Positions 4,318-10,296 of a DNA stretch of 64,000 bases are shown piece by piece. How positions within the stretch are numbered: the first letter of the stretch is position 1; each line of letters starts with the position of its first letter. The notes under the pieces are model-generated. The model saw nothing but the letters and a program-made list of their open reading frames with translations. It ran no database searches and was not told the DNA's origin. The position numbers were made by a program, and so were the translations under genes. This DNA comes from Candidatus Atabeyarchaeum deiterrae (lineage in GTDB: Archaea > Asgardarchaeota > Atabeyarchaeia > Atabeyarchaeales > Atabeyarchaeaceae): contig CP147780.1 in assembly GCA_037310415.1 (NCBI GenBank), positions 2,656,001 to 2,720,000 on the forward strand, in the 5' to 3' direction.

Positions 4318-7023
4318 ATGCGAGAATTGCTGGAGGGCGGTTCCATGAGCTATCCAAAACATGAAGCAAAAAAGATAGTCAAAGAACTCGTGGATTTCTA
4401 TGATTCGAACAAAGACAAGCTGAAAGGAATTAGCGAGACAGACACAAGAGTGAAGTTCATAGATCGGCTTTTCGAATCGTTGGGATGGGATGTCTGGGGG
4501 AGGAGAATTCCCGACGAGGTGCAAAGAGAGGAAGGGGTCAAAGGCAGAGAGCCCACTAAGAAAAAAGCGGATTATAGTTTTCGTATTGCTGGCGTAACCC
4601 ACCTTATTGTCGAAGCCAAAGCACTAGGAGAAGACTTGGAAAGAAAAGATTTCATTAAACAAGCCATATCATATGCCTACAACAAGGCGTGTTCTTGGGC
4701 CGTTTTGACGGATTTCAGAATCATTAAGATCTTCTATGTGGATAGGGAAAGTGACTTTCCATTCTACATGATCAGGCTAGATGATGTCAAGGGATTTGAT
4801 GAGAACTTTGAAATACTTTGGTTTCTTTCAAAGGAGAGTTTCTTGAACAACTCACTCGAAAGTGAAGCAATTAAGCGCGGGATAAGGAAGGAAAAGATAT
4901 CGATCGACAAGGCGTTGTTTGAGGACCTTAGAAAATGGAGAGAATTGCTTTCTAAAGACATCAGAAGAAGATATGCTGACAAATATGCCCCACTTGTTAT
5001 TGACGAGATAGTCCAGAGTATTATAGACAGACTGATTTTCATCAGGAAAGCCGAGGATTCGGAACTAGAAGAGAAGAAACTAGATCAGTTGACTCGAAGA
5101 TTCAACGACAATACTTTTCTAGATCTTATGAAAGTATTCGCTGAATACAAAGAGAAATACAATAGTAGACTATTCGGAGAGAGCAGGACCGAAGAAGAAG
5201 TAGTGGCGGGTAAAACGGAGAAAGCCGAAGTTGACAAAATAGTGATTAGCAACAATGTCATTTCACAAGTTGTTCGCAGCATGTACACATCCGAGGGAAG
5301 CGACATAGAGTACAATTTTGCGGTCATAGATGCGGACATTCTCGGGAACATATATGAGCAGTATCTCGCCTTCATCTTGGGGCAAACACCAACCAAGACG
5401 AAGCTAGAGGGGGGAATTGCACATAGAAAAGAGCAAGGGATATACTATACGCCGACCTATATTGTTGATTACATTGTTAGAAATACTGTCGGTGAAATCC
5501 TGAAGAGCAAGAAACTCGAAGACTTGGAGAAAGTAAGGATCTTGGATCCTGCATGTGGTTCCGGCTCGTTCTTGATAAAGGTCTTTGATGTTATCAATGA
5601 GTACTACACGAATGGAAAGAGCGAGTTACCTTATGCTAGAAGAAAGGAGATCCTAGAGCGACATATTTTTGGTGTTGATCTAGATCCAAAAGCCGTAGAA
5701 ATTGCTCAACTCAATCTTTCGTTGAAAATTGCAGAAAAAGGGCACAGATTGCCGTTACTGCAGAAGAACATTAAGTGTGGCAACAGCATAATCAGTGACA
5801 AATCGATAGGCGGTGACAGCGCTTTCGTCTGGGATACCGAATTCCCTGACATAAGGAAAGATGGTTGGTTTGATGTGATAATTGGAAATCCTCCATACTT
5901 CAAGATCTTTGAGAACGATCCTTTGAACAAGACGGTCGATTATCAGGAAATAAAATCTGGAATGATGAATGCTTCGGCTCTCTTCATAAATAGGTCCCTT
6001 AGACTACTCAAGAAGGGCGGCTACTTGGGGATGATTGTCCCGAAGATGCTGGCATTTACGGACTCTTGGGACAAGATAAGGGACAAACTTCTACGGAACT
6101 TTAGGATCCTGAAGGTTGTTGACTGTGGAAAAGCGTTCAGAGGAGTTCTGCTCGAACAGATTATCTTCATACTCAAGAACGAGTCTGAGGATTTGGATAG
6201 AAACCTGATAACCGTAGGCGAACTCAATAATCAAGTGATAGCCGAGACAGCCAAAGTTCCGCAGAAACTCTGCCTAGAAGAGAATAGCATACATCTAGAG
6301 CCCAAGCAGATTGCCTATGAAATTAAAAGGAAGATAGAGAGATCAAAGACCACTCTGGGAGATGTATCGCATATAATGCTTGGATTGGGAATTCAAGGAA
6401 AGGATTTCTTTACCGACGAATACATGAGTGGATATGAAAAGGTTCTGAGAGGAGATGACATTCAGAGATATGTCATAAGAGGATGTAGGTTCTACAATCC
6501 AAACGATAAAAACATCGTCAAGATAAAAGATACAATTGAGAGGTTCAAGACGTCTCACATAGTAGCGCAAAGAATAGTAGCACACATACAAGATCATATC
6601 AAATTGACTTGTGCACTCGATGAAGAGGGCCTTTTTTCCTTCAATACTGTCACCAATATTTTCGTCATGGACAAGAAGTATCCGATGGAGTACATTCTGG
6701 CTCTACTGAATTCAAATGCAGTCCAGTACTATACTTACAAGTTCATTTACAACAATGCTATCAGGTCCATGGATTTCTATAAGGCGTATGCAAAGAAGAT
6801 CCCTCTGCCTAAATATGACAAAAACCGGCAGGATGGTATTGCGAAACTTGCAAGGGGACTGATAACTATGCACAAAAAACTCTTTGATTTGGGTGGTCAG
6901 CAGACTAACGAAACACAGAGGTTGAAAGATGAGATAGAGAGAACACAAAAGGAGATTGACAACGGAATCTACGCATTGTACGGTCTCGATCAAGATGAGA
7001 TGAAGATAATCGAGAAGCGTTAG
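4318..7023 (+). CDS. Type IIG restriction-modification enzyme (fused endonuclease, N6-adenine methyltransferase, specificity domain)
   Basis: N-terminal ADY...IVEAK nuclease motif, GIYYTP, motif I ILDPACGSGSF, motif IV IGNPPY, C-terminal TaqI_C-like region (YILALLNS) and IDNGIYALYGL tail. Likely start ATG 4345. Confidence 0.92.
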   Translation: MRELLEGGSMSYPKHEAKKIVKELVDFYDSNKDKLKGISETDTRVKFIDRLFESLGWDVWGRRIPDEVQREEGVKGREPTKKKADYSFRIAGVTHLIVEAKALGEDLERKDFIKQAISYAYNKACSWAVLTDFRIIKIFYVDRESDFPFYMIRLDDVKGFDENFEILWFLSKESFLNNSLESEAIKRGIRKEKISIDKALFEDLRKWRELLSKDIRRRYADKYAPLVIDEIVQSIIDRLIFIRKAEDSELEEKKLDQLTRRFNDNTFLDLMKVFAEYKEKYNSRLFGESRTEEEVVAGKTEKAEVDKIVISNNVISQVVRSMYTSEGSDIEYNFAVIDADILGNIYEQYLAFILGQTPTKTKLEGGIAHRKEQGIYYTPTYIVDYIVRNTVGEILKSKKLEDLEKVRILDPACGSGSFLIKVFDVINEYYTNGKSELPYARRKEILERHIFGVDLDPKAVEIAQLNLSLKIAEKGHRLPLLQKNIKCGNSIISDKSIGGDSAFVWDTEFPDIRKDGWFDVIIGNPPYFKIFENDPLNKTVDYQEIKSGMMNASALFINRSLRLLKKGGYLGMIVPKMLAFTDSWDKIRDKLLRNFRILKVVDCGKAFRGVLLEQIIFILKNESEDLDRNLITVGELNNQVIAETAKVPQKLCLEENSIHLEPKQIAYEIKRKIERSKTTLGDVSHIMLGLGIQGKDFFTDEYMSGYEKVLRGDDIQRYVIRGCRFYNPNDKNIVKIKDTIERFKTSHIVAQRIVAHIQDHIKLTCALDEEGLFSFNTVTNIFVMDKKYPMEYILALLNSNAVQYYTYKFIYNNAIRSMDFYKAYAKKIPLPKYDKNRQDGIAKLARGLITMHKKLFDLGGQQTNETQRLKDEIERTQKEIDNGIYALYGLDQDEMKIIEKR

Positions 7024-7272: not shown

Positions 7273-7305
7273 AAAAAAAAGAAAGAGGGAAATTTACTGA
7301 TTTCC
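7273..7305 (-). terminator. Hairpin plus oligo-T terminator of the RuBisCO-like gene
   Basis: Minus strand GGAAAT-CAGTAA-ATTTCC then CTCTTTCTTTTTTTT, just after the exon 2 stop at 7317. Confidence 0.65.
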
Positions 7306-7316
7306 GTCTAGCTTCC

Positions 7317-8664
7317 CTACATCTGGAAACCTGTCTTACCAGTACCCCACTTGGTCAAAGCAGTCTTAAGCTCCTCATGCTCCTCAGCATACTCACTAAC
7401 CTTAGTGCCCTGCATCACAGCATCAATGGCCTGCCTGAATGCTCTTGCACCTGCAGCTGGACCATTCGGGTGAGCGTGGATTGCGGGCTCATCAATTATA
7501 GATGGGCTTTCCGCCGCCTGACCCGATCATGATGTCAAAGCCAAGATCATTGCACACCTTGTCAACATGACCCGCAGTAATCCCACCACTAGGCATAGGC
7601 ATCGTAGGCTTAATATGCTGCAACGGAAACTGCATACGCTTCGCAATCATCAAAAACTTATCAACAAGTATAGGGGCTTTTCCGTACGGGGCCGGGTCGA
7701 GTAGTATGTCTGCGCCACATATGCGTGGTAGTTTGCTCATTATGAGTGTGGGTGATACTCCTGTTATGGGGCTGTAGCTCCATGCGCCTGCAATATCCAT
7801 GTGACCCATTATCGGCAAGGTGTTTGGTTCTTCTGCTACCATTCTTAGGGCGTCGAATCCTATTGCGAGGTAGTTGATGAGTAGTGCGTTTCCGCCTGCT
7901 TGTTTGACTGTGTCGGCGTTTTCTAGGAGTTTGTCGACTTTGTCGGTTATGTTGCAGCAGTATAGGGTTTTTTCGCCTTTTTCTTTGTTTGCTTTTTCTG
8001 CCATTTCCATGTAGAGTGGGACTCTGTCTGCGATTTTGTTGTATTCTGGTTCGGCGATGATTTCGTCGTCTTTGATGCAGTCTGTTCCGCCTACTGCGGC
8101 TCCGTAGAATAGGTCTTTGCCGACTTGTGGTGTGTATCCTGTTTTGGGTTTTATCATGTTGTTGAGTAGGGGTCTTTTGGGTATTTTCATGAGGGTTCTT
8201 ATTCCTTTGAGTCCGAGTTTTGGTCCTTTGAATCCTTTGAGCCAGCTTTTGGGGAACCATAGGTCCATGAGTTTGATTCTTCCGCCCATGCTGATGTTGC
8301 CGACTACGGTTGAGAGTAGCATGGGGATTTGGGCTCCGAAGTTTTCCCATGGGAAGCCTACGGCTATGATCATGTTGCGGTGGTCTACTTCTTTTGGTAC
8401 GGTGTAGACGTATTCGGGTGTTTCCCATATGCCGAGTACTTTTGCCTGGCGTTTGATTTTGAGTTCGATTGTTTCGCCTGGGACTGGTGTCCAGGTTCCT
8501 GTTGATTGTTCGAGGGCTGCCATTTCTGCTACGTCGATGACTGGTAGTGCGGGGTTGAGGCCTGCGAAGTAGAATCCGATGACGTATTTGTCTGTGTCGA
8601 GGCCGTCGAAGAATCCTTCTGGTTGGGCTTCGATGGGCATTTCGATGGGTTTTTCTTCTCCCAT
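7317..8664 (-). CDS. RuBisCO-like protein (form IV RLP), split: exon 1 8664-7509, exon 2 7480-7317; 439 aa if spliced
   Basis: EQSTGTW, IKPKTG, CIKDDE, MPSGG motifs; HMD replaces the HR of true RuBisCO. A second frame continues IHAHPNGPAAGARAFRQAID...EELKTALTKWG, the normal C-terminus. Confidence 0.92.
7481..7508 (-). other. Putative 28-nt bulge-helix-bulge mRNA intron
   Basis: mRNA GCGG-AA^A-GCCCAUC-UAUAAUU-GAUGAGC-CCGC-AA^U: 4-bp helix GCGG/CCGC with two 3-nt bulges. Excision gives GGC GGC GGA AUC CAC GCU CAC CCG (GGGIHAHP). Confidence 0.8.
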
Positions 8665-8838: not shown

Positions 8839-10029
8839 TTAGAGAGAGAATATGATGGCGCACGCGAAAAGTAGTAGTCCCAGCGACATGAATGAAACTG
8901 AGTACATGGCTGTAGCTGCCAATATGAAACCGGTTAGGATTGGTCCGAGTGCTTGTCCCACGTCCATTATGGTGCCGAGGAATCCCATTGCTGAACCATA
9001 GACTTCTTTTCTGCAGACTTCTGATATAAGCGGAGGAGTTGACGATGTAACGAGTGAGAAGCCTAAACCGAAGGTGACTGAGACCATGATGAGTTCGGGG
9101 AAGGATATTGCGAATTGTGTGGCGACCATTGGGATTCCGCTCAGTACCAAGCCTAGGATAATGGGTTTTTTTCTTCCAATCTTGTCTGAGAATTTTCCCA
9201 TGATGGGTTTGGCTAGGACAAAGGTAACTATTTCAGCTGCCAAGACGATGCCAGTTAGGAACGTGTTAATGCCAAGCAGCTGGGCATAGGGTACCAAGTA
9301 GAATTCAAAGGCTCCGTATGTGTAATAGATCGCTGCTTCCACTAGGCTTGTTGCAAGAATGCGCGGGTTCGAGGCGACTTCCTTCCACTCTCCGGCAGTG
9401 CTTCGTGGGATTTTGCTTGTGTTTTCAGCGGGTTTTAGTTCCTTTGTTGTTTTTTGAACTGGTCTTTTTTCAGGTTCTCTTTTTTCACGTAGGCCTGCTG
9501 CCGCGATTAGTGCTAAGACACCTGTTATGCCAACGACGATGTATAGTTCATGGTAGTCTGTCAATGTAACCAAGAGGATGTATCCTCCGAGGGCAGGAGC
9601 GATCGCTCTTCCGACGGCGGTTGATGATGAAAAGGTTGAGACTTTTTCCGCCCTACTCTTGGGATACCTTTCAACTACGGTGGCGTTGGCGACTGGGACG
9701 AGGATGGCTGTGGCGAAGCCATGATAGAATCTTACCAGGATCAGTTGGTATGGGTCAAGAACAAGTAGGTAGAGGAAAGGAGCGGTGGCAAATATGAGAC
9801 CAGCGAAGATGATCACTTTTCCTCGGCCTACTCGGTCAGAGATTGTTCCAGCTGGAAGACTGACGAGTATTCCGGGAATGGTTGAGGCGGCTGCGACGAA
9901 TCCAATTAAGTATGCTGGTGTCCCCAGGCTCTGTGCGAATGGGTTTAGAACGGGGCTCTTCGACATTGTTGAGCTGAGAATAGCGAAGAGTCCCATGATG
10001 CAGAGAGCGATGAAGAATCTCTTCGGCAT
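8839..10029 (-). CDS. MFS transporter
   Basis: Twelve-TM hydrophobic pattern; motif A in both halves (GTISDRVGRG, GKFSDKIGRK). Start taken at ATG 10029 rather than 10263. Confidence 0.9.
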   Translation of the reverse strand: MPKRFFIALCIMGLFAILSSTMSKSPVLNPFAQSLGTPAYLIGFVAAASTIPGILVSLPAGTISDRVGRGKVIIFAGLIFATAPFLYLLVLDPYQLILVRFYHGFATAILVPVANATVVERYPKSRAEKVSTFSSSTAVGRAIAPALGGYILLVTLTDYHELYIVVGITGVLALIAAAGLREKREPEKRPVQKTTKELKPAENTSKIPRSTAGEWKEVASNPRILATSLVEAAIYYTYGAFEFYLVPYAQLLGINTFLTGIVLAAEIVTFVLAKPIMGKFSDKIGRKKPIILGLVLSGIPMVATQFAISFPELIMVSVTFGLGFSLVTSSTPPLISEVCRKEVYGSAMGFLGTIMDVGQALGPILTGFILAATAMYSVSFMSLGLLLFACAIIFSL

Positions 10030-10296
10030 AGGCAGTTCGACCCGGCTACTTAGAAGTAGACGTAACAACTGGAAATTGTCAGTATATGTGGCACCCATTG
10101 TTGGGTGACTCTTTCTGAAGTGGAAAAGTTGAGCGGAAATCATCCGACTATATTTCAGCTGTAGTTCCTCTCTATGACCTAGAATGAGAATGGTCTCTGA
10201 CAGCACCGCAATATTATCTTCAGGCCGAAGCAGTCCCTTGACTCTTTTGGTCCAAGCATGCACGGCGAAAGGTTCGTTTGTCAGCGCAGCATGTAC

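Follow-up and report, generated by a model that had tools for sequence, protein, structure and literature searches.

We analyzed a 64,000-nt window of contig CP147780.1 from Candidatus Atabeyarchaeum deiterrae, whose coordinates are used below unless another contig is named, and in it a RuBisCO-like protein (RLP) gene on the minus strand that is interrupted by a 28-nt insert on the same strand. These 28 nt are very probably a real mRNA intron of the relaxed bulge-helix-bulge (BHB) type, removed by the splicing endonuclease EndA and the ligase RtcB. An earlier note on this DNA had proposed such an intron, and the proposal is supported by the conservation of the insert in relatives, its precise absence from one of them, selection on the second exon, further inserts in the same gene, the splicing enzymes of the host, and other split genes in its genome.

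The RLP reading frame starts at an ATG at 8664-8662, with a Shine-Dalgarno-like GGAGGT motif 5' of it on the minus strand. Read without splicing, it runs from 8664 to 7492 and ends in ...GSGGGKPIYN, followed by TGA TGA inside the insert. Exon 1 (7509-8664, minus strand, 1156 nt) holds 385 codons and the first base of an isoleucine codon, while exon 2 (7317-7480, minus strand, 164 nt) supplies the last two bases of this codon, 53 further codons, and a TAG at 7317-7319. The phase 1 intron between them (7481-7508, minus strand) consists of an A, the stem strand GCCCAUC, the loop UAUAAUU, the stem strand GAUGAGC, and then CCGC and AA. Its removal is predicted to join ...GGCGGCGGAA to TCCACGCT, which gives 1156 + 164 = 1320 nt and a 439-aa product that reads GSGGG-IHAHP. 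The earlier note had claimed the double stop after GSGGGKPIYN, a further 54 C-terminal residues in another frame that end at TAG 7317, and restoration of a 1320-nt, 439-aa frame with its GGGIHxHP loop when the EndA rule is applied; all of these were reproduced when we recomputed them. Since the 28-mer has no copies elsewhere in the genome, it is not a repeat or mobile element.

The exon 1 product matches the Pfam families RuBisCO_large_N and RuBisCO_large, and the 53 codons of exon 2 (7478-7320) match positions 256-299 of the 299-position RuBisCO_large profile, that is, its last 44 positions. Exon 2 carries the IHAHP..GPAAGARAF phosphate-binding region. The best PDB matches of exon 1, 3fk4, 2oek, and 2zvi, are RLP or 2,3-diketo-5-methylthiopentyl-1-phosphate (DK-MTP-1-P) enolase entries (E 6e-59 to 3e-53) that rank above the form II/III and form I entries, and the alignments to 3fk4 and 2oek stop exactly at ...GGG. 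A JGI homolog is named 2,3-diketo-5-methylthiopentyl-1-phosphate enolase, and the spliced product keeps the motifs IKPK, KDDE, and GGGIHAHP. Judged by these matches and motifs, the gene is a form IV RLP of the DK-MTP-1-P-enolase type, with enolase activity as its predicted function. It shares with the YkrW/MtnW-type form IV RLPs (3fk4, 2oek, 2zvi) both Pfam domains, KDDE, and GGGxHxHP, but differs from them in belonging to a distinct archaeal clade, in having an interrupted gene, and in that its activity is predicted from sequence.

The predicted fold of the transcript is built around a 4-bp central helix (H) that lies between the two cut sites, in which exonic GCGG (7511-7514) pairs with intronic CCGC (7483-7486). 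The 5' bulge AAA (7508-7510) is clear and would be cut between 7509 and 7508, whereas the 3' bulge AAU (7480-7482), with its predicted cut between 7481 and 7480, depends on a single pair, G7515-C7479, that alone closes it on the exon side; the caveat in the earlier note that the motif is relaxed at this point is correct. Within the intron, GCCCAUC and GAUGAGC form an inner helix (h', 7487-7507) with six of seven pairs and a 7-nt loop, and further out UCGGGU (7521-7526) pairs with ACCCGA (7466-7471) in an exonic helix spanning 7466-7526, all on the minus strand. The minimum free energy (MFE) structure of the 81 nt from 7455 to 7535 recovered GCGG/CCGC, the AAA bulge, and the outer helix, and drew the inner stem as 2+4 bp around one C.A mismatch with a 7-nt loop. 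Thus, the central helix, 5' bulge, 6/7 inner stem, and outer helix claimed for this fold all stand, while the claimed 3-nt bulge on the 3' side does not appear in the MFE structure. The insert takes the relaxed HBh' form. Each bulge lies 3' of its central-helix strand, which is the archaeal pre-tRNA arrangement as derived from tRNA numbering. EndA cuts after the second bulge nucleotide, as stated for the cbf5 intron (PMC2738675).

When site and length are fixed, a fraction of 2.7e-4 of genome positions offers a central helix of 4/4 pairs together with 6/7 or more inner pairs, and the chance rate rises to ~8e-4 when three equivalent slides are allowed. Because the loose BHB motif is common (247 loose matches in 1.6 kb), it carries little weight by itself; what counts is that fold, exact site, and length fit together. 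A genome-wide BHB scan with filters on open reading frames (ORFs) and codon scores yielded 1049 candidates, mostly ordinary gene boundaries, and was set aside as too unspecific for counting; when run under a rule of a 3-bp contiguous inner stem, the genome-wide scan missed the RLP intron itself.

Comparison of the same site in relatives identified both the insert and its absence. The closest genome, Atabeyarchaeia-1 (CP147779.1, 89% amino acid identity in the RLP), and the JGI contig Ga0315308_1027607 (L043) carry a 28-nt insert at the same codon; in the JGI contig Ga0315309_1000590 (L044, 90% amino acid identity), precisely these 28 nt are missing and the sequence is GGC GGG GGT ATA CAC. Across the three copies, 97% of the pair cells are paired, compared with 25-44% when the partners are slid. 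The central helix is paired in 3/3 copies with one G-C to G-U change, and the inner stem is a perfect 7 bp in Atabeyarchaeia-1 and L043 through compensatory changes. Inner pair 2 reads C-G, C-G, and U-A across the three copies, and inner pair 3 reads C.A, U-A, and C-G, with C.A as the intermediate. The compensatory changes in orthologs that the earlier note had suggested looking for are therefore found, among three sequences, at two inner pairs that changed on both sides. The outer helix retains 6/6 pairs (some of them wobble) in the three intron-bearing alleles and 4/6 in the intron-less L044. The tree of the four Atabeyarchaeia alleles does not separate a gain of the 28 nt from a loss.

Relative to Atabeyarchaeia-1, dN/dS is 0.17, 0.11, and 0.056 along the three parts of the gene, which reveals purifying selection where decay had been raised as a way to refute the intron. 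The last value is that of exon 2 in the spliced frame, at a dS of 1.03; such a low ratio at dS ~1 indicates that exon 2 is translated in the spliced frame across the divergence of two genera. The insert differs at 6/28 positions and is more conserved than nearby synonymous sites; read in the +1 frame, 4 of its ~10 codons have changed non-synonymously. The spliced RLP aligns without gaps at GGG|IHAHP to 26 uninterrupted orthologs.

The RLP gene is interrupted elsewhere as well. Six further inserts that obey the BHB rule, spread over five other positions, were found in orthologs from Atabeyarchaeia, Freyarchaeia-1, Jordarchaeum, and a Hermodarchaeota metagenome-assembled genome (MAG), and for each a single placement obeys the rule and restores both the frame and conserved residues. 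L043 has 33 nt in a His codon at amino acid 288 (H 4/4) with an in-frame stop inside, Atabeyarchaeia-1 (L004) has 22 nt at amino acid 293 (H 4/4) with a weak inner stem that makes this insert uninformative alone, and L044 has 31 nt at amino acid 303 (H 3/4, 7 bp). At amino acid 323, 30-nt inserts interrupt the gene in Freyarchaeia-1 (CP147778.1, L030/L045; H 4/4, 9 bp, with an in-frame stop) and in Jordarchaeum madagascariense (L029/L049; H 3/4, 9 bp), and at amino acid 328 there are 32 nt in the Hermodarchaeota MAG (L023/L125; H 3/4, 8 bp) and 59 nt in Freyarchaeia-1 (H 4/4). With site and length held fixed, these geometries would arise by chance at rates of 1.6e-6 to 1e-3, the exception being the 22-nt insert (2e-2). 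The inserts at amino acids 323 and 328 are missing from relatives in the same clade. Uninterrupted orthologs make up 103 of 113 further loci, and the interrupted ones belong to lineages that carry a heavy load of tRNA introns according to a 2026 preprint (bioRxiv 10.64898/2026.10.13.758758). Taken together, the RLP gene is a predicted intron hot spot across Asgard lineages. One candidate split ortholog, L111 from Promethearchaeota LW30_13, was rejected because its break is a run of N. In the Jordarchaeia isolate QC4 (L052/L147), a second partial RLP C-terminus (amino acids 361-434) lies at 1965-2186, just downstream of the complete gene.

We also checked five more genes of the A. deiterrae genome, each split by a 31-53-nt insert: those for a class-I aminoacyl-tRNA synthetase (aaRS; valS-like and read as ValRS), SHMT, a radical-SAM enzyme, MTAP, and GatE, with inserts at C1:457151-457181, 652709-652749, 919007-919059, 938160-938197, and 2222226-2222266, respectively. 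Removal by the BHB rule restores Pfam colinearity within one to two positions in SHMT (4-54 | 56-399), the aaRS (2-73 | 75-414), and MTAP (2-173 | 176-232), and it restores a Cx3Cx2C motif in the radical-SAM enzyme. For GatE, the sole support is the motif fit CLVEA|DDEPP, with Pfam positions 31-44 unmatched. The genome also holds a weaker SHMT paralog, and SHMT alone is no proof of essentiality; it would nevertheless be difficult to account for a broken aaRS and a broken GatE in a curated complete genome if mRNAs were not spliced. Like the RLP, MTAP is part of methionine salvage.

The enzymes that such splicing would use are encoded in the genome. A catalytic EndA alpha subunit is found at C1:215557-215811, with its best PDB match in the tRNA-splicing endonuclease 3p1z_B, which we take to be that of Aeropyrum pernix. 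A second, His-less beta subunit is encoded at C1:625628-625888 and an RtcB ligase at C1:982706-984013. The predicted alpha/beta pair is of the crenarchaeal type. Asgard EndA is reported as an (alpha-beta)2 enzyme with an L1 loop that confers broad specificity and acts on relaxed BHB substrates (PMC5829648), and according to the Atabeyarchaeia genome paper, 92-95% of the tRNA genes contain introns, many of which sit at non-canonical positions (PMC11291895). Aragorn found only 24 tRNA genes in the whole genome, indicating that standard callers are limited here.

We infer cleavage and ligation from what the sequences show: the gene anatomy, a conserved and covarying insert, an allele that lacks it, purifying selection on exon 2, and genes for the enzymes. 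The transcript would fold by pairing exonic GCGG with intronic CCGC, leaving a 3-nt bulge on each strand and the 7-bp intron hairpin inside. The (alpha-beta)2 endonuclease, presumably already at work on the host's numerous non-canonical tRNA introns, would then cut after the second nucleotide of each bulge, and RtcB would ligate GGA-A to UC-CAC, so that both the Ile codon and the reading frame are re-formed. Only the spliced mRNA would encode the C-terminal 54 residues with the GGGIHxHP loop.

Several observations weigh against this reading. The RNA evidence comes from a comparison of the assembled contigs of four runs over the gene, DNA and RNA libraries included. Two low-depth contigs (depth 4-7) from the one metatranscriptome run lie on the gene, and the only RNA contig that covers the site, a 259-nt strain variant from run X6 with a depth of ~4.5, spans 7318-7514 and retains the insert, past which it extends for 6 nt. 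The assembled contigs of the four runs, where RNA cover is thin, contained no spliced joint, such that the spliced RNA across the junction that the earlier note had called for did not appear. The exact 24-nt spliced junction had no match in JGI metagenome contigs. The X6 library holds the unspliced form or contaminating DNA and provides no measure of splicing; splicing may be inefficient or conditional. A protein search with exon 2 for longer proteins gave a best match of 77% identity and no near-identical full-length form. On the structural side, the MFE prediction gives a 3' bulge of 6 nt instead of 3, followed by GGCG/CGCU, and its energy is only modestly better than that of shuffled sequences (z = -1.83, with 9/200 shuffles folding equally well). 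The strict hBHBh' form has flanking helices of at least 2 bp, and h is 1 bp here. With only three sequences, the covariation count has little statistical strength, and 97/500 shuffles reach it.

Four other explanations for the insert were weighed against these data. The chance that it is an assembly or sequencing artefact is negligible: nothing was found in its favor, the DNA contigs of two independent runs carry the insert without differences, which excludes an assembly slip and speaks to the check on DNA that the earlier note had suggested, two other assemblies from other samples also contain it, and the genome had undergone curation and a long-read check (PMC11291895). It is highly improbable that the gene is a decaying pseudogene with an insertion scar in a dispensable RLP, even though the unspliced frame ends 5 codons into the insert, a second RuBisCO homolog is present in the same genome at C1:200388-201452, and the published annotation lists only a single RbcL-like gene for each of the Atabeyarchaeia genomes (supplement of PMC11291895). 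Decay does not fit an insert that is common to lineages at dS ~1 with both exons still open, dN/dS ratios of 0.17, 0.11, and 0.06 along the gene, intact KDDE, IKPK, and GGGIHAHP motifs, and an insert more conserved than the synonymous sites around it.

A programmed +1 frameshift or translational bypass would leave the insert in place and lengthen the stretch between GGG and HAHP by ~10 residues. No stop codon closes the +1 frame from ~7 codons ahead of the insert into exon 2 in this genome, Atabeyarchaeia-1, and L043, the X6 contig keeps the insert, and cbf5 introns were once taken for frameshift sites (PMC2738675). However, nine open codons are expected by chance ~2/3 of the time, this loop is not extended in any of more than 100 orthologs, no slippery motif is evident, and the +1-frame changes in the insert are mostly non-synonymous yet keep the RNA pairs. 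Since a frameshift also leaves unexplained the close relative that lacks exactly the 28 nt, and would not rescue the 30- and 33-nt inserts with in-frame stops or the other split genes, we consider it very unlikely. Alternatively, the 28 nt could be a real BHB intron that is spliced partly or conditionally, so that unspliced mRNA yields a truncated 390-aa product and splicing acts as a switch on enzyme level. The same RNA contig, the relaxed 3' splice site, and the C.A mismatch in the inner stem, which is specific to this genome, would fit such a switch; given that the contig is single, of low depth, and from a soil library that possibly holds DNA, we regard it as unlikely. A relaxed BHB intron removed by EndA and RtcB remains the reading that we favor.

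The closest known counterpart is the intron of cbf5, the only archaeal protein-coding gene with confirmed splicing, other cases being predicted only (PMC2738675); the earlier note had named it correctly as the known archaeal mRNA intron. Like the RLP intron, the cbf5 intron of Crenarchaeota (Aeropyrum, Sulfolobus, Desulfurococcales; Watanabe 2002, Yoshinari 2006, Yokobori 2009 = PMC2738675) is a short, relaxed BHB-like element in a protein-coding gene that is cut between the second and third bulge nucleotides, inside a codon of a catalytic motif, in hosts with a hetero-oligomeric EndA, and it has been gained or lost among relatives. In contrast, cbf5 encodes a pseudouridine synthase, is interrupted at a catalytic Asp codon, and concerns Crenarchaeota, while the gene here is an RLP gene of Asgard Atabeyarchaeia, its family is interrupted at several sites, and other genes of its genome are split as well. 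Splicing of cbf5 was proven by cDNA, whereas that of the RLP intron is predicted from sequence. The non-canonical tRNA introns of Atabeyarchaeia and Freyarchaeia (PMC11291895; bioRxiv 10.64898/2026.10.13.758758) occur in the same organisms, are of similar length (~12-60 nt) and relaxed BHB form, presumably depend on the same enzymes, and have likewise been gained and lost repeatedly between close relatives. They differ in that the RLP substrate is an mRNA, whose exon helices come from coding sequence and whose splicing would set a reading frame rather than the shape of a tRNA. Neither of these two sources mentions protein-coding genes, and our literature searches for BHB introns in Asgard protein-coding genes returned tRNA work only.

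In eukaryotes, non-spliceosomal mRNA splicing is known from HAC1/XBP1, where IRE1 recognizes twin stem-loops in a stress-regulated manner and tRNA ligase or RtcB ligates the exons. The likeness lies in the protein-catalyzed excision of a short mRNA intron that shifts the frame of the C-terminus; the nuclease differs, being IRE1 on twin stem-loops and not EndA on a BHB. The RLP intron is in all likelihood new in placing a relaxed BHB mRNA intron in a new, metabolic gene and in a new phylum, the Asgard archaea. It would bring a protein-catalyzed splicing logic to an Asgard metabolic gene, recurring at several sites and in other genes of a complete genome. Should RNA data bear this out, genes of these genomes that are now annotated as truncated or as pseudogenes would have to be re-annotated, with consequences for metabolic reconstructions, and these organisms would offer a natural system for asking how a tRNA endonuclease of broad specificity is kept from damaging mRNAs.

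On a broader scale, we lean, with limited confidence, toward genome-wide EndA-dependent mRNA splicing in Atabeyarchaeia and, to a lesser degree, in Freyarchaeia/Jordarchaeia and some Hermodarchaeota, which would involve dozens of genes, including housekeeping genes, with introns gained and lost between strains in the manner of their tRNA introns. If true, this would be the first intron-rich set of protein-coding genes in any archaeon, in the phylum sister to eukaryotes, and the RLP gene, with six sites packed into a third of its length, would stand out as a hot spot.

The RLP gene also has an unusual codon composition. Between 7810 and 8750 on the minus strand, which comprises the first ~850 nt of its coding sequence and ~85 nt upstream, 88-96% of third codon positions are A or C; there is no T at third positions, and G occurs in ATG and TGG only. 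Downstream of this tract, third positions are ordinary or lean toward G/T, and dS is 0.44 inside the tract compared with 1.0-1.4 outside. The 2.76-Mb genome has only approximately six such A/C-wobble tracts; every one lies on the minus strand, and one falls in the EF-2 gene. Among RLP genes, the tract is common only to those of intron-rich lineages (Atabeyarchaeia, Freyarchaeia-1, one same-genus genome [G046], and partly the Hermodarchaeota MAG) and is missing from 17 other orthologs. All RLP intron sites found lie downstream of it. If mRNA splicing is genome-wide, this A/C-only wobble tract may be adaptive, holding the remainder of the mRNA unpaired so that it escapes introns or off-target cleavage.

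At the other end of the gene, the segment from 7307 to 7403, which includes its last ~90 nt, stands out in two DNA runs by a depth 4-7x that of its flanks, and beyond both of its ends many contigs diverge; this segment is common to several community members or copies at >=90% identity. The terminator that the earlier note had placed after the stop codon is seen by eye as a possible archaeal terminator at 7273-7305 (minus strand), with a weak hairpin, GGAAAU..AUUUCC (7288-7305), and an oligo-T run (7273-7286), while a consensus terminator scan after the RLP stop codon gave no site. Aragorn identified no tRNA within the window, and no methionine-salvage genes adjoin the RLP gene. Its neighbors are a 901-aa ORF at 4318-7023 on the plus strand and a 474-aa ORF at 8839-10263 on the minus strand, and by their motifs (NPPY-type; multi-pass hydrophobic), these flanking ORFs resemble a DNA methyltransferase/restriction fusion and an MFS-like membrane protein.

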